Positions 18,976 through 50,674 of a stretch of 64,000 bases of DNA are shown here, one piece after another. The DNA is taken from assembly GCA_028873515.1 (NCBI GenBank), contig JAGWIG010000010.1, positions 5,642-69,641 on the forward strand, read 5' to 3'. Below the pieces are notes generated by a model. That model saw only the letters and a list, made by a program, of their open reading frames with translations. It did not search any database and was not told the DNA's origin. A program made the translations under genes and the position numbers. The first letter of the stretch is position 1, and each line of letters opens with the position of its first letter. This stretch comes from Pseudomonadota bacterium. GTDB taxonomy: Bacteria; Pseudomonadota; Gammaproteobacteria; Burkholderiales; REEB80.

Positions 18976-19953
18976 TCATCCTTGTCCATTTCCGTTATCA
19001 AGAATGGCCTTCCTGATAGCCTTTGCCAGTTCATCAGGCATAAACTTCGCAACATATCCATCTGCACCCACGCTTTTGGCGTGAGATTCATTGGCTGATC
19101 CAGACAGGGAGGAATGAATGACGACAGGAATTTCCTTCAGGCTATCACTTTCCTTAATCTGTCTCGTCAAGGTAAATCCATCCATTTCCGGCATTTCAAG
19201 ATCTGTCAACACAAGAGCAATCTTCTGGCAGGCAGGGATACCGGCAATTTTGGCTTCCTGCTCCAGCTGCTGAAGACGCACAAAAGCTTCCTTGCCAGTT
19301 TTAGTACCAATAAAGGGCAACTTGAGGTGGGTCAATGTCTTTTCAATCTGGCTCCGCGCCACCGCGGAATCATCGGCATAGAGAATAACAGATCCTTGAG
19401 GAATAGAGATAGCTTCAATCGGACTCAGTTCATCTCCCCCCTTGAACCGGGTAGGCAAAACCTGACGTAGAATCTGCTCGACATCCAGAACAAGCGCAAG
19501 ACGCATCTCATCTGCATTCTCGCCAAGCCGGGCAAGACTGGTGACCATACCCCCAACGGCCGCACCCTCCGCTGACAAAACCTGGTTCCATTCCAGCCGG
19601 GTAATCTCCTCGACTTCTTCTACGGCAAAACCATGGATGGAACGCTCATACTCTGTCACAAGCAGAATATTCCGCCCTGTCGGCTTACAGCCAACCACCG
19701 CGGGAAGATCAATGACGGGGATGATCTGACCCCGGATATTAGCCACCCCCATGACATGCTGCGGAGCACCTGGCATGGGGGTAATGACAGGCATCACCAG
19801 CGCCTCACGCACCTTGAACACATTGATGCCAAACAGCTCCTGGGTACCACTGTTCTGATCAACCCCCAAACGAAAAATCAGCAGTTCAAATTTATTGGTT
19901 CCAGCAAGATTGGATCGCTCATCAACTTCCTGCAAAACATGACTCATGTTCAA
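18976..19953 (-). CDS. cheV: Chemotaxis coupling protein CheV (CheW-like domain + receiver domain)
   Basis: N-terminal CheW-like region (FGINVFKVREA..., IRGQIIPVIDL) and C-terminal REC (ILYADDS..., VLTDLEMPEMDG, K at GYVAKF). Confidence 0.85.
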   Translation of the reverse strand: MNMSHVLQEVDERSNLAGTNKFELLIFRLGVDQNSGTQELFGINVFKVREALVMPVITPMPGAPQHVMGVANIRGQIIPVIDLPAVVGCKPTGRNILLVTEYERSIHGFAVEEVEEITRLEWNQVLSAEGAAVGGMVTSLARLGENADEMRLALVLDVEQILRQVLPTRFKGGDELSPIEAISIPQGSVILYADDSAVARSQIEKTLTHLKLPFIGTKTGKEAFVRLQQLEQEAKIAGIPACQKIALVLTDLEMPEMDGFTLTRQIKESDSLKEIPVVIHSSLSGSANESHAKSVGADGYVAKFMPDELAKAIRKAILDNGNGQG

Positions 19954-19959
19954 CTCTCC

Positions 19960-21210
19960 TTATCTCCTGACGGCCGCTTCACGCAACCGGTCAAGCTTTT
20001 GCAAAATATCCTGCTCAAGGCGAACCAGTTCTGTACTTTGACGGATGGCCTCCTCACGGTTTCCCGATTCAAGGTTTATGAGCACGTTCTTCCCAACCTG
20101 ATGCACCTGGATATGGGGTGAATCCAGTTCCTTGAAATCTGGCAAATCACCAAAGAGTTCGCGACCTATGCCGTCATACCATTTGCCAAAATAACAGTGA
20201 TGATGATCTGGCAGATCCGATTCATTCATGAAATCATGGGTTTTGGTGACCTCTTCACGTACGCGGTTAATAAAGATTTGATGACTCTGCTTGACGGCAT
20301 CGACAAACATGGTCATGGCCAACCCGTTTAGTCCCTGGACGCGTTGATTGTGCTGGAAGGCCAAGGCCTCCGCCCCTTGAACCCTCTGGTAAGCAATCTG
20401 GCTCGTGCCTGCAATATCTTTCGCAGAATCGTCGATGGCCGCAATATTGCTTTGAACTTCTTCCGTTGCTACCTGAACCCGTTTGGAGAGACTACGGACC
20501 TCATCAGCCACTACAGCAAATCCTCGGCCATGTTCTCCAGCCCGGGCTGCCTCAATAGCCGCATTCAGGGCAAGAAGATTGGTCTGATAGGCAATTTCCC
20601 GGATTGTCTGGGCAATGCGCCCAATCGTCCCGACCTGGGTAATAAGACCCTCGGATGCCTTCCGGTTTTCCATGATGGATTGCTGGATATCATGGAGCGT
20701 GCTCCCTACTTCATCCATACTTTGCTGGGCTTCCCTGGAAGTATTGATCAATGTAGCACCCTGGTTGGATACCTTACCGATCAACGTGTTAATGGTATCA
20801 ATTGCAAAGCGTTCCGCAGTCCTATCCCTCCAGGAAACATGAAAAGCGATAATCTGACCAGCCTCATCCTGAAGGGGGCTAAAAATCAGGGAAAACATCA
20901 CATCATCCCGGCATAATTCGGTTTGATGAAATTTCATCTTTTTTTCAATCAAGGTTCGAAATATATTCCGTATCCGATCAGGTTCCTTATGAAACTGATG
21001 AATGGAAAAGGTAGAGGACTGCTGTACCTCTGTTCCTGTCAGCCTGACATGGAGAGATGGATAATAAAAATCCAGGCTCTTCAGTGCTGCCTCGTTCATA
21101 TACAAGATCCTGTTTTCCATGGCTGGATCATTTTCAACCAGCATTTCCAGTGTATCGAACGAATCAAGCAGTTGCTGGATCCAGCTCATGCTGCTGCTTT
21201 CAATGGCCAT
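19960..21210 (-). CDS. Soluble methyl-accepting chemotaxis protein: PAS-like N-domain, short MA signalling domain, C-terminal CZB (chemoreceptor zinc-binding) domain
   Basis: Canonical tip [37 protein letters not shown]-terminal CZB signature SHQIF...[10 protein letters not shown]...SPHIQVHQ. No TM helices. Confidence 0.8.
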
Positions 21211-21236
21211 CCTGTTCTCCTGAAAAAATCATCCAA

Positions 21237-21995
21237 TCAGCGTGAAATAGCTGTTCCGACATTTAACCCGTCAAACCAGTCGAGAAATCGCTGTACATTG
21301 GTACCGCTATAAATGGCCCCATGCTGTGGGCATAGATACTGGATATCGAGTTTGGAGACCCGGTTAATCCAATCCCTTTTCGCTTCATTGGAAGGCATCC
21401 AGCGTTGATGAAAATATCTGGCCTTCTGAATATGATCATCAAAGGATTTCGCTTCATCGCCACCCATCCTGCGATTCACCCAGGCATCATGCCCAGGCTG
21501 CAATATTGCCGCCCCCACATCTCCAGAAAAAAACACCTTGGCTTCAGCGTCATAGACATGAAAATTGGCTGAAGCATGAAGGTAATGGGCAGGAATAAAT
21601 TCCAGTTTGCGGTCACCAATAAAAAGCTCTCCCCCATCATCTGGAATTCCGCACAAAACTGCCTCCAGCGCGCCATAATGACGAATGAATCCTTCCCACA
21701 GGCTAGGCACATGCCACTGGATCTGGTCGTTGCAGGCATTCCACAAAGGCAGGCTGGAGGCAATATCCGGATCCTGATGAGAAACGAAAGCAGCCTTGAC
21801 GGCAGCAATAGGTACCACTTCCACCATTGCAGTAAACACATAGGGAAAAATTTCGAAACCGCCAGGATCGAGTATGATGGCCTGTCCATTGGATTCCATG
21901 ATATAAACGTTGGAATCAATCACCCGACGTTCATCCTGATCATAGATCATCCACCAGCGATGACTACCCTGTTCAAAAACGGGCGCCACTTTCAT
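21237..21995 (-). CDS. Metallo-beta-lactamase-fold di-iron protein, ODP-like (flavodiiron N-domain-like, no flavodoxin domain)
   Basis: 252 aa. Ligand-like motifs SHQDPD (HxDxD), AHYLHASANFHVYD, FFSGDVG and CPQHG are collinear with the flavodiiron/ODP di-iron site. Embedded in a che operon. Confidence 0.6.
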   Translation of the reverse strand: MKVAPVFEQGSHRWWMIYDQDERRVIDSNVYIMESNGQAIILDPGGFEIFPYVFTAMVEVVPIAAVKAAFVSHQDPDIASSLPLWNACNDQIQWHVPSLWEGFIRHYGALEAVLCGIPDDGGELFIGDRKLEFIPAHYLHASANFHVYDAEAKVFFSGDVGAAILQPGHDAWVNRRMGGDEAKSFDDHIQKARYFHQRWMPSNEAKRDWINRVSKLDIQYLCPQHGAIYSGTNVQRFLDWFDGLNVGTAISR

Positions 21996-22593
21996 GTAGT
22001 ATCCTTTCGAGTTGTTTGCTATAGGAACGTATGCTCTGGGCGACCGTAGACACGGCCTGACCCATTTCCCTTGAGACGCTGACCAGTGGTGCTCCCGAGT
22101 CTATGGACAAGGCCGCCTCAATGCGGCCATTTGTCACGATGTACTCCTGTTCGGCAATACTTTCCTGCATTCTGCCTGCGGCATGGATAACCTTTTTGAG
22201 AATGACTAAAGCACAACCTTCCTCTATAGCTATCCTGCCTGCCAAATTCATTCGAGTATTTTCCAGGGCAGGACTGGTTTTACCCTTTCGGTCCAGTTCT
22301 TCAATCATGGTCTGAAAAATCACCAGGTAGCGTCGATTCTGCATGATATGCATATGGGCCTGAATCAGCGGGGCAATACATTCATGCAGCAGAAGACCTG
22401 ATTTAGTAAGAAATGTAGCCCGTTCGCGAAACGCCTGAGCGACCACGCCGTAACCTGCCAGCGCACTGCCATGACGCTTGACCAGAACCATGGCATTAAG
22501 GGCACGGCGGTCAATTTCACGGAGGGATTTTTCCAGGGTACGCAGCACAAGGTGAGAATCATCCACCAGTTCCATCAAATCTTGGATATTCAT
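21973..22593 (-). CDS. 206-aa protein with two degenerate MCP hairpin-tip-like motifs (sensor-less mini-receptor-like)
   Basis: aa 26-59 IDRRALNAMVLVKRHGSALAGYGVVAQAFRERA resemble the canonical tip [30 protein letters not shown]. aa 153-187 TNGRIEAALSIDSGAPLVSVSREMGQA form a second weaker copy. The ATG overlaps the cheA stop, and the 3' end overlaps the ODP-like start by 23 nt. Confidence 0.45.
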   Translation of the reverse strand: MNIQDLMELVDDSHLVLRTLEKSLREIDRRALNAMVLVKRHGSALAGYGVVAQAFRERATFLTKSGLLLHECIAPLIQAHMHIMQNRRYLVIFQTMIEELDRKGKTSPALENTRMNLAGRIAIEEGCALVILKKVIHAAGRMQESIAEQEYIVTNGRIEAALSIDSGAPLVSVSREMGQAVSTVAQSIRSYSKQLERILHESGARF

Positions 22594-24635
22594 CAGGCAA
22601 TTCCTTGCTGTCTGGAATGGACCATCTTCATCTGCTCGATTGCCCTGGATATCAGCGTTCCAGGATCCAGAATAAGCACCACATCCCCTTTGCCAGATAT
22701 CGTGGCCCCCTGATACCAGCTTCCCATCTTGTCTTCGGGAAGAAAATCAATTGGTTTGACTACAGAATCCTCATTACCCAACACTTCAGAAGCCATGAAA
22801 AGTCCGCGATCAGTGAGAATGCCTTCCACGGGTTCACCTTCAAGCCTCAGTGGCCTGTCATGGAAAAGGTTGCCCAGATCCACAATAGGAGTCACCCTTG
22901 AGCCACTGATCTGATAGACCGTACGTCCATCCAAATGGTGTATAAGCCCTTTCTGGATATCGATAAGGCTTTCTATCGCAGAAATGGGCAAGGCATAGAT
23001 ATCCCGGCGTAAACGAAGATAAAGCACGGGTAGCACCGCCATGCTCAGGGGGAACTCCATGGAAATGGTGGTTCCTTCGCCAAGGCGGGTCTGGACATCA
23101 AGATGCCCCCGAAGCTTGCGCGCCGTATCTTTGACCACATCCATCCCAACCCCCCGTCCGGAAAGATCGGTGGCCTTGTCCTTGGTGGAAAATCCAGGGC
23201 GGAAGATGAGTTCCAGCGCCTCCTGTTCTGACAGGCACGCCGCTTCTTCACCAGTAATCACTCCCTTGGCAAGCGCCTTCTGGACAAGAAACCGTCGATC
23301 GATTCCTCGCCCATTGTCCGAGACTTCAATCCGTACCTTGTCGCCCAGATGAACTGCAGCAATACGGATGCAGGCTTCCCTCGGTTTACCAGCAGATTGA
23401 CGTTCTTCGGGCTTCTCAATCCCATGATCCAGACTATTACGAACAAGGTGGGTAATAGGACTGGAAAGGGCGTCAACGACCGTTTTGTCAATTTCCACCT
23501 CTTCACCTGCAATATCCAGTCTCACTTCCTTGCCCAATTGCCTGGAAGCGTCCCGTACCGCACGCGGCAACTGTTGAAACAACCGCTTGCAAGGCTGCAT
23601 CCTAAGATGCATAACCGTATTCTGGATATCATTGACAGTGAGATCCATTTCCCTGGAAATACGGCTCAGGTCTTCATTGACCTGAACCAGACTTCCCACG
23701 GCAGAAGCCAGCCTATTCCGTAGCAGCACCAGTTCACCTACCTGGTTAATCACTGAATCCAGGCGCCCTGAATCAACCCGGATAGTAGTCTCCGACATAT
23801 CAGAAACAGAAGGGGGTCTTCTCGGTGGCAAAGCACTATCTAATGAGGGAGATTTAGCTGTTGACCGGGTTTTTTCCGGTGTCGATGAACCAGTACCCTG
23901 GGTCATTACTGCTAAAGGGACAGGTTCAGGACTGATGCTGTGAAAAAACTGTTCAAGAACCTGATCATGATCATGTTGCTTGCCGGGAATCCGTGATTCT
24001 GTGCCCCTGTACGTACTGGAAAATGGCAGATCCCCCCTGGAATGATTACCTGTCTTTTCATCCAGCTTCAATTCCCAGCCATCAGGCCCACCATCGCTTT
24101 CATTACTGGACGCCAATTTTTCCGATTCAGACGAAACCCCAGATGAAAAAGCCTGTAATTGCACAACGAATGTCGAAGTCGGGTGGGCTGGGGAGTCCTG
24201 TCCATTTTCTTCAATCCCGGCTCCCAATAAGCTATCGTCTGACTCAAGAGCCGGAAAATGTCCTGCAGCAAGTTCCCGAATCCGTCTTGAAAGTTCTTCA
24301 GGCCCATGGGCAGGATGATTTCCTTGAGCGAGCTCTTCAAGCATGACGTGAATCACATCCATGCCGTTCAGTATGGTATCAATCATGATCCGGGTAACCG
24401 GGAGGACATGGGAACGAAGCTTGTCGAGCAAGTCTTCAAGGTGATGTGTCCATTCAACAAGATTGTCTGCCTCGAGAAACCCGGCGCCCCCTTTCAGGGT
24501 ATGAAAAGCGCGGAAGACTGATGCCAGAATCCCATCATCGCCAGGATCGTTCTCAAGACGAAGTGTGTCCTCCTGGGCTTTTTCCAGAAGCTCCCTGGCC
24601 TCAGTCAGGTAGTCTTGCAGTATTTCCTCATCCAT
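22593..24635 (-). CDS. cheA: Chemotaxis histidine kinase CheA
   Basis: Hpt FHTLKGGAGF, N-box HLVRNSLDHGIE, G1 DNGRGID, G2 GRGVGMDVV, and a C-terminal CheW-like P5 domain. Confidence 0.9.
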   Translation of the reverse strand: MDEEILQDYLTEARELLEKAQEDTLRLENDPGDDGILASVFRAFHTLKGGAGFLEADNLVEWTHHLEDLLDKLRSHVLPVTRIMIDTILNGMDVIHVMLEELAQGNHPAHGPEELSRRIRELAAGHFPALESDDSLLGAGIEENGQDSPAHPTSTFVVQLQAFSSGVSSESEKLASSNESDGGPDGWELKLDEKTGNHSRGDLPFSSTYRGTESRIPGKQHDHDQVLEQFFHSISPEPVPLAVMTQGTGSSTPEKTRSTAKSPSLDSALPPRRPPSVSDMSETTIRVDSGRLDSVINQVGELVLLRNRLASAVGSLVQVNEDLSRISREMDLTVNDIQNTVMHLRMQPCKRLFQQLPRAVRDASRQLGKEVRLDIAGEEVEIDKTVVDALSSPITHLVRNSLDHGIEKPEERQSAGKPREACIRIAAVHLGDKVRIEVSDNGRGIDRRFLVQKALAKGVITGEEAACLSEQEALELIFRPGFSTKDKATDLSGRGVGMDVVKDTARKLRGHLDVQTRLGEGTTISMEFPLSMAVLPVLYLRLRRDIYALPISAIESLIDIQKGLIHHLDGRTVYQISGSRVTPIVDLGNLFHDRPLRLEGEPVEGILTDRGLFMASEVLGNEDSVVKPIDFLPEDKMGSWYQGATISGKGDVVLILDPGTLISRAIEQMKMVHSRQQGIA

Positions 24636-25923: not shown

Positions 25924-27465
25924 ATGATCAATAGGCAATTTATGGGCCATAACCAGAAAATTCCGATGACACAAGCTTTAACTACCATTGCTTTGAAGCA
26001 ATTATCCGGATTATTTTCTGAACTTCCCTTGATTATTCATTATCACGATAAATTTACTGATTCCTATCTTACAGTCGATAACCCCAAAAAAAATGACCTC
26101 TGGCAAATTTCGGTCTCTGGATTGGTGCAATCCGTAAATTTCGAAAAATTCGACAAACCCCTGCGATTTGTCATGAAACACTGGTTTAATCATCAACTGC
26201 AAAATTATGCCATCAGTACTGCTATAACCAGGTTTGACCGTATAAAAAAAATCCCGGCATCTGACTTGATACAGGTCGTATTATCTTCACCTAAAACGAT
26301 AGGTTCTATCTGGCAATCATTCCTGGCCAGGGAATTTCACGTCCTGACACTGGATAGCCTCAAAAATATCCTCAACTTTTTCTGCATATCCAATATCGGA
26401 AACTGGTCATCAGGTTCTTCGCATTATCTTTCCGAACTCCCCATTCCTGTCATGGACAGATATACATCCATACAGACTGGCAACATTTTCCTGAGCGGGG
26501 CCGAAGAGGCGATCCTTGTTGCCCATTTCAATGAAATGTCAAAGAATATGATTCACAATCCCGGTTCGATATCAGATCAAACCCTGAGGGAAACCACCCT
26601 TCTTGTATGCTCTTATCAGTTTGGACTCTGGCCTGTCCAGATTGGGATGTTACAGCTGCAGGATATTCGAATCTGGAATGAGGCTGGAGAGACCCACCCT
26701 TGCGTCCACCTGACCTTCAAAAGAGTAAGACAGCGACTCCCGGCCCGATCCATGCCCCTATGCCGCAAGGTTAAGCAGGAATGGGGTATCCTTTTTACCG
26801 AGCTTTACAAACGCGCAGAAAGAAAAGGGCTCAAGGAAAGCGATCGTGTTTTTCAGACCCGAAGCGCCAAGGAAACAGCACAAATCCTTACCAGGACAAC
26901 AGGAAGGTTACTGCCTGCAAGCAGGAGTGCCTCCGTATTGCGCCATACGGCCGCTAAACGATTAGTCAACGCAGGACTTAGCCATGAGGAACTTGCTGAA
27001 TTTATGGGGCATCATTCCGCCCATTCCAGTCAGGTCTATTTTCAAACCATGACCCATCATGCAGAACGGGTGAACAATGCACTTGGAATATTTGACAGCA
27101 GGCAACCTGATGCAAAAATTCTCCATGACCATTTTATCAGCTACAGGGAACTTGCCGCACTCGATGCTACACAGCAAATAGGTGGGGCTCCACATGGCCT
27201 GCTTATTTCCGGGATTGGTGGCTGTAAAACAGGCCAGCCTTCCTGCCCTTACAACCCGGTCATCGCATGTTATGGATGCCCCCGGTTCATGCCTCTCAAC
27301 GAGTCAAAAATTCATGAAAAAGTTCTTTCTGATTTTAGATCTGTCGTGACTTTTTTTTCCAGGACCTGTCAGGGAAGCCTCGATTCCCCAGCCTTCTTGC
27401 AGCTCAAAAGGACCTTTTCTGCCATTCTTGCAATAATTGCCGAAATTGAAATGGATAAAAAATGA
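25924..27465 (+). mobile_element. Large tyrosine-recombinase-like protein (513 aa) with C-terminal Cys cluster, first of a pair
   Basis: RBS AGGAG before the ATG. C-terminal catalytic-domain pattern ...VLRHTAAKRLVNAGLSHEELAEFMGHHSAHSSQVYF (R-H...GH...Y). Box I-like LLVCSYQFGLWPVQIGMLQLQDI. Cys cluster GGCKTGQPSCPYNPVIACYGCPRF. Confidence 0.65.
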
Positions 27466-29753
27466 ACCAGTTTTACAAATCTTTTATAGAGTCCGGTTTG
27501 AAGCTTGCTAAAGACCATGATATAAAATGGGAAATGTTTCTCAGGCCGGATGGCTCCGTAACCAGGAAAAACATCTGGAACCTGACCAAAATAACAAACA
27601 GCCCTTCACCCCCAAGCTATTGCATCCATGATTTAGGGTCAGATAACCGAACCCTGGAGATCCTCAATATCCAACGCCAGCAGAAACATCTGCCTATATA
27701 CGAAAAGAAACCCCTTTCATCAGCGTGGCTTGATTTCATAAAAGCAGCGGTTCTGAATCAGCTATTCTTGCGCAACTTCACCGCGAATCATGTATTGACC
27801 CAGATTTGTCGACCATTACGGGTACTGGCTACATGCACACCCCATGAGCCATGGGAACTACTCGCTGAAGATATTACGCTCGCTCTAGGCATTGCCAATA
27901 CGCTTCAGGCTTCAGGCCATCTGGCTCAATGCATAAACATCGTTACCCGCAGCATTATCGATACTTACCATATTGCTGATATTGGGCCTCTTTATCCCGC
28001 CCTGCCTTCAATTTCCGAGGAAAGGAAGAATGTCCACCACTCCAGGCAGACCTATTCGGGTGACAGGTTTCAGCCCAGCCTTGAAACAATCAAAAAAACA
28101 CAAAGCCTGCCCGAACACCAGGCTTTTTTGGAGCTGGTTAGAATTGTGTTTACTGAACAGCCCAGAACCTTTATGGATCATCTGCGTTTTGCCCAGGTCA
28201 AGATCATGCTGCTATGCGGTATGCAGACTGCAGATATCAGCCTCCTGCCTGAGGACTGGAAAAGACAACAGGATTTTTACACACCATCTGGACAACTGGC
28301 TGGTGAACATGGAGGTTATTCTCAAGCCATGTTCCTGCAACATTTTTTTGAAAGGCATCAGGCAGGGAATTCAGGTGGCACTGCTCTTTACGAAGCCCGA
28401 AAATATGTACCAGCAATATTTGAGCAGGATGTGGTTCAGACGCTCGACAGTATCGCCCGGCTCACTCAACCGTTACGCCAAACCCTGCGCAGGCAAATGG
28501 AAGAAAACCGTATCCTGCCCTGGTTTCACCAGGACGAACTGGTTCTGGCCATCAAGCTCTACCCCTATCTGACGGGTAACCCGATATTAGTCTCAGGTAG
28601 CCCTGACGAACACGAATTTCCTTCACGCTACCAACAGTCTCTTGACCCTGGCTTGTTCAACGAGCTTCACAAAACCCAACTTGCCATGGCTGGTACAGCC
28701 AGGCTGAACATGTCACTTTATGTCTATTTCAACCGCATGAAAGGTAAAGTTACCTTCCGAAAGTCCGATGGCACACCCTGGCATGGCTTACGCATGAAAT
28801 GGGACGAGGTATTTCTAAGAATTGATGAGGTTGAAAATTACCTCGCGCGGGAATCCGCAACCAAGCACTCCAGTCTAACCTCCCTCCCAACGTCAACAGG
28901 AAAGCTGGAGCCCTGGAAACTGATGTTTCTCATGCCCATCCGTGCCTTGATAGAAACTCGCAATGAAGGACTATGTGATATCACACGGTATTTTGCAGTA
29001 GGCAGGATGGATTCGAGAATGGTACAGCACTCCCTGTCAGGAAACCAGTCTGGAGTACAGGGCCTTTTTGAGGCTTATGGCCGGACCGATGAAGATCGAA
29101 GTCTGGCTTTAAATGCTCATTCTCTCAAACATCTGCAGATCACAGATTCCTTTTACCCAAAAATAATCAGGATGGTTCTTCTCCAAAAACTACACCCGCA
29201 CAATCTTAAACATATACATGAAAACCACCCCTATGCTTTTGCAGACAGACGGGAGCAGATTAACCTCCCCAGTGGGGCTGAAAAAATCATGGGAGAAAAA
29301 GTATTGGCAGTTGCGAAACTAATCAAGGCTGGTAAAGCAGATAATCCCATTGTGCAAACCTTCAAGAAAATCCAGAAAACTCAAGGTGAAGCAGTTGCTT
29401 TAGCCTTTCTCGGAACCGAGGCTAGCGGTTTCCATGCCACTCCTTATGGATACTGCATAACGAGCCTGACCTCTGAACCCTGCCCCAAATACCTGGAATG
29501 CTTTGCAAACTGTCGTCATCTGGCAGCCAGTAACCTTTCCGAAAATGGGCGTCATCTCACCACATTGAAAAACCGCTTTGAGAAAGCACTGGTCGACGCC
29601 CTGAACCGCCCAGCCGAATCCATAGGCAGGGAAAACCAGATAATGCACATCAAGGAAAGGTTAGGTGCAGTGCAAACCCTGCTAGCCTCGGTAAACATGA
29701 ACTCGACCATTTTGAAACAACCCCCGCCTGCATGCAGCGAATTCCAGTCCTGA
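27462..29753 (+). mobile_element. Second large tyrosine-recombinase-like protein (763 aa), Tn554-TnpB/BIM-like partner
   Basis: ATGA overlap with the upstream gene. Box I-like IMLLCGMQTADISLLPEDW. AHSLKHL...ENHPYAF resembles HxLRH...Y. Cys cluster YGYCITSLTSEPCPKYLECFANCRHL parallels that of the first protein. Family assignment is by eye. Confidence 0.5.
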
Positions 29754-50014: not shown

Positions 50015-50674
50015 ATGCGTATCCTACTTGTAGAAGATGATCCCATGATCGGTGAGGCTATCAAGGTTGCTTTGAAAGATGCAGCCTATGCAGTAGATTG
50101 GGTTAAAAACGGAACATCAGCCAATCAAGTGTTGGAAAGTGGAGAGTATCAAGCAGTGTTACTTGATTTGGGCTTGCCCAAACGCGACGGGCTGGAAGTG
50201 CTACGTTTATTGCGCCAAAGGCGAAGTCACATACCTGTCATCATCATTACCGCCCGAGATGGAGTTGAAAACCGCATTAAAGGACTAGATACCGGTGCTG
50301 ATGACTATCTTGCCAAGCCTTTTGATATCAATGAACTACTTGCCCGATTGCGGGCCGTCATTCGACGTCAAGGGGGAAATGCCTCCCCAATACTCAGCAA
50401 TGGTCTAATAAGCCTCAATCCAGCGACGCGGGAGGCGCAATGTTCGGAAGGTGCACACTTATTGAGCGCACGAGAATTTTCCCTGCTCTATGCATTATTA
50501 TTACGACCCGGAGTAATTTTAACCCGTACCGAACTTGAAGAACACATCTATGGCTGGAATGAAGAAGTAGAAAGCAACGCTGTAGATTTTCTCATCCACA
50601 GCATACGGAAAAAACTAGGGATGAATTCCATCAAGAATATCCGAGGTGCTGGCTGGATGGTTACAAAACCATGA
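50015..50674 (+). CDS. OmpR-family response regulator (QseB/BasR-like)
   Basis: MRILLVEDD..., LLDLGLPKRDG, K at YLAKPF, and a winged-helix C-terminus (IRGAGWMV). Confidence 0.9.
   Translation: MRILLVEDDPMIGEAIKVALKDAAYAVDWVKNGTSANQVLESGEYQAVLLDLGLPKRDGLEVLRLLRQRRSHIPVIIITARDGVENRIKGLDTGADDYLAKPFDINELLARLRAVIRRQGGNASPILSNGLISLNPATREAQCSEGAHLLSAREFSLLYALLLRPGVILTRTELEEHIYGWNEEVESNAVDFLIHSIRKKLGMNSIKNIRGAGWMVTKP

Follow-up and report, generated by a model that had tools for sequence, protein, structure and literature searches.

The question raised by this locus is whether a protein of about 200 residues can take the place of a chemoreceptor. In a 64,000-nucleotide stretch of contig JAGWIG010000010.1 from a Pseudomonadota bacterium of the order Burkholderiales (the whole stretch analysed, hereafter the window), a 206-residue protein, which we call X, is encoded between the kinase gene cheA and the gene of an oxygen-binding di-iron protein (ODP). 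A sequence-only reading of this DNA had proposed that X carries two hairpin-tip motifs of methyl-accepting chemotaxis proteins (MCPs) and thereby mimics, in one chain, the tip of a receptor dimer. From the analysis reported here, we consider it on balance probable that X is a miniaturised, sensor-less descendant of the MCP tip that serves as the array-docking partner, or 'cognate receptor', of the O2/Fe(II) sensor ODP. The same data leave the two-tip claim unestablished.

Gene X and its features

The open reading frame (ORF) of X is real, and its limits are right. The X start and the cheA stop overlap as TGATG at 22591-22595, as read from the sequence, with ATG and TGA sharing one A, and the start of the ODP gene overlaps the 3' end of X by 23 nt, as it does in Acidithiobacillus thiooxidans. 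The translational coupling to both neighbours described in the sequence-only reading is seen on either side, and the downstream gene, previously called ODP-like, is identified as ODP by PF19583. No in-frame start lies further upstream in the ORF list, and because each listed ORF begins at the first start codon after a stop, a longer version of X is excluded. The N-terminal arm, put at only about 40 residues in that reading, is genuine, because homologues are nearly all 205-207 aa; the competing idea of a true start further upstream, giving a receptor of normal length, finds no counterpart in the ORF list or in the homologues. In the alignment of both subfamilies of relatives, the arm ahead of tip 1 has about 40 residues and the one after turn 2 about 38. 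X has no transmembrane or sensor domain, and it lacks the long antiparallel hairpin with methylation and flexible-bundle subdomains (MCP criterion, at least 24 heptads). Its features are as follows.

21973-22593, minus strand: gene X, a 206-aa mini MCP-tip-like protein (ORF list, homologue lengths, all-helical AlphaFold2 models)
22602-22606, minus strand: AAGGA resembling a Shine-Dalgarno sequence, within the 3' end of cheA and 8 nt before the start of X
22417-22524, minus strand: motif 1 (residues 24-59; ALNA..R.G....G[YF].VVA...R), from hhalign, matches to MCPs in the PDB and weak PF00015 matches
22453-22470, minus strand: expected tip-1 turn (residues 42-47, G42...G47, then G49), aligned by hhalign with Tsr G390-G395
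22258-22293, minus strand: variable connector (residues 101-112; AlphaFold2 loop 103-107), the least conserved part and an indel site, a loop in both AlphaFold2 models
22051-22155, minus strand: motif 2 (residues 147-181; invariant EQEYVVTNGRIEAAL..SGAPL..VS.EMG.AV), from invariant columns, weakly tip-like by hhalign
22093-22107, minus strand: turn 2 (residues 163-167), non-helical in both AlphaFold2 models and on the MCP U-turn in the hhalign register

Homology of motif 1 to the receptor hairpin tip

Profile comparison establishes true homology between motif 1 and the hairpin tip of MCPs. We used two profiles of the family, A2 from the close family and A5 from both subfamilies. The N-terminal half of the superfamily matched an MCP profile, built from 136 MCP signalling-domain segments, with P=2.5e-9 and a probability of 96% in hhalign. 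In hmmsearch of the PDB, A5 retrieved MCPs at E values from 1e-6 to 5e-5, among them Aer (1e-6), the TM14 fragment 4JPB_B (1.7e-6), Tsr (1.8e-6), TM14 (1e-5, with 3G67 matched) and TM1143 (3.5e-5); X itself in phmmer and A2 in hmmsearch found no MCP in the same database, and only A5 succeeded. These matches bear out the earlier assignment of motif 1, made by eye, to the MCP tip; the string then quoted is present, at residues 27-59 rather than 26-59. Profile positions 7-89 of X span residues 4-86 of the 90-residue fragment 4JPB_B, nearly its whole length, and this alignment shows X residues ~7-89 to be homologous to the receptor protein-interaction hairpin that binds CheA-P5/CheW.

The Pfam signal is weaker and lies in the same place. 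PF00015, with a gathering threshold of 34.6 bits, was matched weakly by 108 of 119 X family members. In ten members checked one by one (10.5-17.8 bits), residues ~31-80 fall on PF00015 positions ~53-102, which correspond to the tip, and in individual scans relatives of the Rhodocyclales type reached 17-33.5 bits (E=5e-8 to 5e-3). With what we take to be the Tsr numbering, motif 1 keeps the equivalents of A379, L380, N381, A382, V384, R388, G390, G395, F396 (as Tyr), V398, V399, A400 and R404.

X belongs to a family of two subfamilies

A search of 5.8 billion proteins returned 391 relatives of X. Among the 120 relatives listed, almost all measure 205-207 aa, and Acidithiobacillus species or acid-mine metagenomes are the main sources. 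One of them, P0001, differs from the window protein by a single residue, E99D (D for E), in a variable region; this near-identical protein aside, the closest relative among the matches listed is 58% identical. An exhaustive profile search of 1.84 billion cluster representatives matched a second group of proteins of 197-213 aa at E=6e-7 to 9e-4 and found no canonical MCP. This second, Rhodocyclales-type group, with more than 1,200 members in Dechloromonas, Azonexus, Zoogloea and others, aligns with X end to end. Both motifs are common to the two groups, which answers the homologue survey proposed in the earlier reading. Existing annotation calls the Rhodocyclales-type relatives "chemotaxis protein" or "methyl-accepting chemotaxis protein", and precomputed annotation assigns them PF00015; Acidithiobacillus-type members are mostly labelled "hypothetical protein".

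A search of metagenomes based on P0159 gave no confirmed relative. Two cluster representatives look like artefacts: in P0137, the C-terminal part of a CheA runs into the N-terminal part of X, probably as a result of a frameshift or miscalled gene, and P0147 carries an unrelated hydrophobic N-terminus on the C-terminal two-thirds of X. Other family assignments were rejected. An NCBIfam scan gave no match for X, and there was none to CheW-like families. The match to DUF3581 (PF12119) stayed below threshold (18.6 bits against a cut-off of 25, E=0.0014), and the 25 Pfam families that most family members match do not include it. CheZ was discarded because X does not match PF04344; in A. thiooxidans, cheZ is a gene of its own, located two genes upstream.

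X and ODP form an invariant gene pair

X and ODP constitute an obligatory, translationally coupled gene pair. In the window, the gene order is cheA-X-ODP-(PAS-MCP-CZB)-cheV, with the following neighbours of X.

22593-24635, minus strand: cheA (Hpt, dimerisation, HATPase and CheW-like P5 domains), from Pfam and conserved synteny
21237-21995, minus strand: ODP, oxygen-binding di-iron protein (PF19583), from Pfam (E=3e-64)
19960-21210, minus strand: soluble PAS-MCP-CZB chemoreceptor, from Pfam
18976-19953, minus strand: cheV (CheW domain and receiver), from Pfam

The cheA-X-ODP-MCP-cheV cassette recurs in six loci of other assemblies, namely all three from A. thiooxidans together with L084, L085 and L086. 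In A. thiooxidans it is part of the series motB-cheY-cheZ-cheA-X-ODP-MCP(CZB)-cheV-MCP, beside flagellar genes. In the Rhodocyclales type, an ODP gene lies directly 3' of the X-like gene, within a few tens of bases, in 80 of 80 retrieved loci, and within 8 kb of X-ODP none of these 80 has CheA, CheV or an MCP of the neighbour type. Because the pairing holds both in che cassettes and in stand-alone Rhodocyclales loci, X-ODP is an invariant unit. We rank this pairing as the key to the function of X; its obligatory nature did not figure in the sequence-only reading. ODP is known as an oxygen/iron sensor that is genetically coupled to the sensor-less soluble MCP TDE2496 (PMC7666581), and MCP-ODP operons occur in both gene orders (PMC7319448). 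TDE2496 is reported to modulate CheA and probably joins existing arrays (PMC7666581).

Motif 2 resembles the tip weakly

The best local alignment of the C-terminal half of X to the MCP profile is to the tip itself, with a score of ~20, P=0.003-0.015 and a probability of 3-11% in hhalign. The alignment is gapless and in exact register: N155 falls on Tsr N381, I158 on V384 and E159 on E385, followed by A160-A161, and then D165 falls on E391, G167 on G393, L170 on F396, V173 on V399 and E176 on E402. None of 200 column shuffles of the MCP profile matched the observed score; 41 of 200 shuffles of intact 7-column heptad blocks did, which places the bulk of the signal in a short stretch around NxxIEAA. 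The string quoted earlier for this motif is present and family-invariant, at residues 154-180 and not 153-187. No hmmscan gave a second PF00015 stretch, and comparison of the N-half with the C-half in hhalign, with both A2 and A5, found none of the internal repeat that the earlier reading had suggested looking for. With a single significant MCPsignal-like match and motif 2 below threshold, the claim of two MCP tip motifs is not established at the sequence level.

These results leave a plausible alternative, which we hold to be short of an even chance: only hairpin 1 would derive from MCPs, and hairpin 2 would be unrelated or convergent, kept invariant by ODP binding or by capping of the bundle. 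X would then be a structural stand-in for a dimer tip without being 'two-tip' by descent. The lone significant MCP match, the block shuffles and the missing repeat all fit this explanation, as does the conservation of motif 2 together with ODP linkage in both subfamilies. It is opposed by the placement of the C-half exactly on the tip, where the AlphaFold2 turn 163-167 meets the MCP U-turn without a gap, and by the failure of any column shuffle to reach the score. Motif 2 keeps the equivalents of N381, V384, E385, E391, G393 and E402. Motif 1 thus retains the basic and glycine tip positions and motif 2 the acidic ones (E385, E391 and E402 equivalents). We speculate that this complementary retention reflects sub-functionalisation of two protomer equivalents.

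Predicted fold and covariation

AlphaFold2 was run twice, with alignments of the close family (119 sequences) and of both subfamilies (128 sequences). Both models are confident and all-helical, with a predicted local distance difference test (pLDDT) of 89.9 and 91.0 and a predicted template modelling score (pTM) of 0.78 and 0.80. DSSP assigned helices 3-102, 108-162 and 168-205 in each, and pLDDT is lower at residues 41-50 and 161-170. The loop previously placed at about residues 101-112 is confirmed as a variable connector. In P0059, it holds a 22-residue Gly/Asn-rich insertion, exactly at the equivalent of window residues 101-107, and this end of the protein is therefore structurally permissive. 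At the expected tip-1 turn, the AlphaFold2 models show a dip in pLDDT and covariation peaks at i+j=87, yet there is no DSSP break.

The overall shape of the models was judged from Foldseek superpositions. The best match in the PDB was 9FED, with TMq 0.61-0.62, TMt 0.67-0.68 and a root-mean-square deviation (RMSD) of 4.0-4.1 Å over 195 columns; from the design described in PMC13137300, this entry appears to be a rod made by one chain, in which three long helices accompany a short one of 26 residues. Elongated helical targets superposed with RMSDs mostly of 17-41 Å. De novo reaction-centre and maquette proteins of 190-199 residues, which we take to be four-helix bundles, gave 9.7-12.8 Å over ~200-210 columns. 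All matches were to generic helical proteins, with no MCP chain among the top 50. When idealised C-alpha models were compared, a fold-back four-helix arrangement gave 13-19 Å, a three-helix bundle with protruding N-helix 29-38 Å and a long hairpin 41-45 Å, and only the fold-back geometry reproduced the observed Foldseek values. Because the superpositions fit only a compact up-down-up-down four-helix rod, we infer that the AlphaFold2 model folds back near residue 43. Within the DSSP 'H' run there is probably a concealed one-turn segment (SALA), bounded by kinks at conserved G42 and G47/G49, and the predicted first helix of the rod, H1a, bears an a/d hydrophobic stripe. The fold-back suggested by Foldseek nevertheless conflicts with the unbroken DSSP helix.

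Covariation provides weak independent support for a fold-back at motif 1. Mean-field direct coupling analysis (DCA) was applied to 339 unique sequences of the ~1,600 in the family, with an effective number of sequences (Neff) of 79. Single couplings are too noisy at this depth, and scores were summed along antidiagonals at a sequence separation of at least 24. The top antidiagonal was i+j=209 (z=2.7), which corresponds to the connector hairpin and also to H1a-H3 contacts, and the second was i+j=87 (z=2.1), which corresponds to a hairpin with its centre at residue 43.5. The Acidithiobacillus subfamily taken by itself has one top peak, at i+j=87 (z=2.8); in the Rhodocyclales subfamily this peak is modest (z=1.2-1.6). 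The near-equal outer arms, the a/d stripe of H1a and the variable, insertion-tolerant connector are circumstantial points on the same side.

The order helix, tip 1, helix, loop, helix, tip 2, helix proposed from the sequence alone agrees with the AlphaFold2 loops at 103-107 and 163-167, but has no DSSP break at motif 1. Likewise, four helices of one chain with both tips at the same end accord with the compact rod found by Foldseek and not with the DSSP string at that position.

Both AlphaFold2 DSSP strings are exactly what would be expected of a conventional homodimeric mini-receptor, in which each chain is a single long hairpin turning at 103-107, and a pair of chains builds a four-helix bundle of ~150 Å. 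In the middle of the shaft, motif 1 would then lie opposite motif 2 (residue 43 against 165, given as i+j=210), the two forming a conserved hinge or binding site and not tips. The strongest covariation antidiagonal, at i+j~209, fits this layout, and ordinary MCPs as well as the ODP partner TM14 are homodimeric hairpins. The superpositions do not fit it: a 2x100-residue hairpin has an estimated TM-score ceiling against 9FED of ~0.49, below the observed 0.61-0.62, and RMSDs of 4-13 Å to compact rods are incompatible with the 41-45 Å of the idealised long hairpin. In addition, no part of X is less conserved or more prone to indels than the supposed tip at 103-107, both arms flanking motif 1 are collinear with the receptor hairpin, a covariation peak at i+j=87 exists, and a pTM of 0.8 is high for a 150 Å hairpin. 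We regard the homodimer as unlikely.

Several points weigh against the reading of X as a tip descendant folded into a single-chain rod. X of the window does not match PF00015 at E<=1, and no relative scanned reaches its gathering score. The tip resemblance of motif 2 is weak and lies mostly in NxxIEAA, and the two halves show no repeat. Both AlphaFold2 models were computed for P0001, which differs from the window protein by E99D, their helix 3-102 is unbroken at motif 1 in DSSP, and their shape is judged from superpositions. Covariation contributes a weak signal (z about 2-3 at a Neff of 79), and at i+j~330, where hairpin 2 should appear, the DCA shows a weak signal or none.

Neighbouring genes

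The window cassette (18976-24635) lacks cheW, cheR, cheB, cheY and cheZ; in A. thiooxidans (L001, 3984-12555), motB-cheY-cheZ lies directly upstream of cheA. No cheZ match was found anywhere in the window, and the only other CheY-like match there is a response regulator at ~50015-50674 with 30% identity. Upstream of cheA and divergent from it, two large overlapping ORFs of 513 and 763 aa occupy 25924-29753 on the plus strand; the former has a sub-threshold match to phage integrase (tyrosine recombinase), the latter no Pfam match. Because these ORFs occupy the place of cheY/cheZ in A. thiooxidans, a mobile element may have inserted upstream of the window cheA. For the cluster in A. caldus, PMC6543871 reports dependence of cheW, cheA, cheZ and cheY on RpoF, the sigma factor of the flagellar regulon; its searched passages do not take up the genes between A. 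caldus cheA and the annotated cheW.

The window PAS-MCP-CZB receptor measures 416 aa, with a signalling domain of only ~160 residues; its counterparts are a 282-aa MCP-CZB in A. thiooxidans and MCPs of 463-470 aa elsewhere. Residues ~130-280 of the window CheA form a long Ser/Pro/Gly-rich low-complexity linker from the Hpt (P1) to the dimerisation domain, and no Pfam domain was found between the two, where the CheY-binding P2 domain would be expected. The stand-alone X-ODP of Zoogloea ramigera (L027, 5683-12122) has a PF10136 site-specific recombinase upstream and a HemN-like oxygen-independent coproporphyrinogen oxidase downstream, which hints at an oxygen-related neighbourhood. In L085 (11407-14621), a metagenome-assembled genome with the label Acidobacteriota, the cassette is followed immediately downstream by another chemosensory cluster (CheA-receiver hybrid, CheW, CheR).

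Comparison with known receptor tips

TM14 of Thermotoga maritima (3G67/3G6B) and TDE2496 of Treponema denticola resemble X in being soluble, in having no transmembrane or sensor domain and in being encoded beside ODP. TM14, which we take to be likewise an ODP-coupled sensor-less soluble MCP, shares MCP tip homology with X, as seen in its PDB matches above (TM14, 1e-5; 4JPB_B, 1.7e-6). We assume TM14 to be an ordinary homodimeric hairpin with arms of ~100 residues, and its single tip match, which falls on motif 1, is close to the centre of the 213 residues of the chain (TM14 63-193 against X profile 4-137). X differs in having its tip at residue ~43 of 206 after a 40-residue N-arm, a second conserved turn and a variable connector at its midpoint, and its Acidithiobacillus-type members fall below the PF00015 threshold. 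X thus shares the ODP adjacency of the TM14/TDE2496 type but not its single-tip homodimeric hairpin layout. The TM14 pieces 4JPB_B and 3UR1_C, presumably receptor tips crystallised with CheA and CheW, have the same size as hairpin 1 of X and are collinear with it; we take such a fragment to be an artificial truncation that needs a second copy to form a bundle.

The earlier statement that no natural single-chain receptor tip had been described does not stand, as soluble single-chain MCPs with double signalling domains are on record in R. centenum and as F9 DosM (PMC4692393, PMC7534058). Like X, DosM is a natural single chain with two signalling-tip elements and is mostly sensor-less, acting as a scaffold inside arrays (PMC7534058, PMC9321776, PMC4692393). 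Unlike X, which has one demonstrable tip, it contains two full tandem MCPsignal domains, and its extended rod, tipped at both ends, bridges two baseplates, whereas the turns of X are predicted at the same end. DosM is encoded with a triple-CheW (F9 context); X is encoded with ODP and CheV, without CheW3 in its cassette.

Engineered single-chain receptors, namely Tsr~Tsr fusions and Tar kinase-control modules with foldon, share the connectivity proposed for X, in which the C-arm of hairpin 1 is joined to the N-arm of hairpin 2 in a one-chain four-helix bundle (PMC4692393; bioRxiv 10.1101/2020.03.27.011866). These chains are synthetic, are built from two full-length, identical signalling domains and tend to swap subunits, whereas X is natural and asymmetric, with ~40 residues per short arm. 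Its size of 206 aa, its asymmetry and the predicted same-end turns set X apart from the engineered chains, TM14, TDE2496 and DosM alike. In the literature that could be searched, a body that does not include the key ODP paper, no account of this architecture turned up.

Proposed role

As a docking partner of ODP, the X chain would fold alone into an up-down-up-down rod of four helices, H1a (3-42), H1b (44-102), H2 (108-162) and H3 (168-205), with both conserved turns at one end and the termini and variable connector at the other, so that one chain would stand in for the tip of a receptor homodimer. The motif 1 hairpin would insert into CheA/CheV(CheW) arrays, probably beside ordinary receptor dimers, and motif 2 would be a second, diverged hairpin that completes the bundle. 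X of the cassettes may dock into its own arrays and X of Rhodocyclales into arrays encoded elsewhere. Binding of ODP to X, depending on its iron/oxygen state, would then alter CheA activity.

In a more specific form, which we put forward tentatively and consider rather doubtful, X would be a natural asymmetric single-chain replacement of a receptor-dimer tip, in which one hairpin keeps the array contacts (CheA-P5/CheW-type and trimer) and the other provides the input face for ODP. That X is instead a decoy or regulator, a tip mimic that competes with receptors for CheA-P5/CheV, caps or limits arrays or fixes the CheA state, with ODP tuning the competition, would suit its lack of methylation helices and sensor domain, its translational coupling to cheA and the reported change in CheA ordering in T. 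denticola arrays on ODP deletion (PMC7666581), but X-ODP of Rhodocyclales stands alone, far from cheA, as expected of an input module more than of a regulator dedicated to CheA, and we think the decoy role quite improbable.

Implications

The Acidithiobacillus-type entries labelled "hypothetical protein" receive a corrected annotation from this work. If the single-chain fold is true, X would be, among natural units, the smallest that can fill the place of a receptor in a chemosensory array, and it would provide a ready soluble monomeric "tip" for reconstituting or imaging CheA/CheW(CheV) complexes, for which laboratories have had to engineer one. Its asymmetry would show which tip residues face inward (trimer) and which outward (kinase or coupling protein), a distinction that is hard to draw in homodimers. 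It would also offer a testable route by which, in Rhodocyclales and in acidophiles that oxidise iron and sulfur, oxygen/iron information could pass from ODP to the kinase. Should the two hairpins indeed divide their labour between array contacts and ODP input, a soluble protein of 200 residues without methylation helices would suffice to feed an O2/Fe(II) signal into chemosensory arrays.

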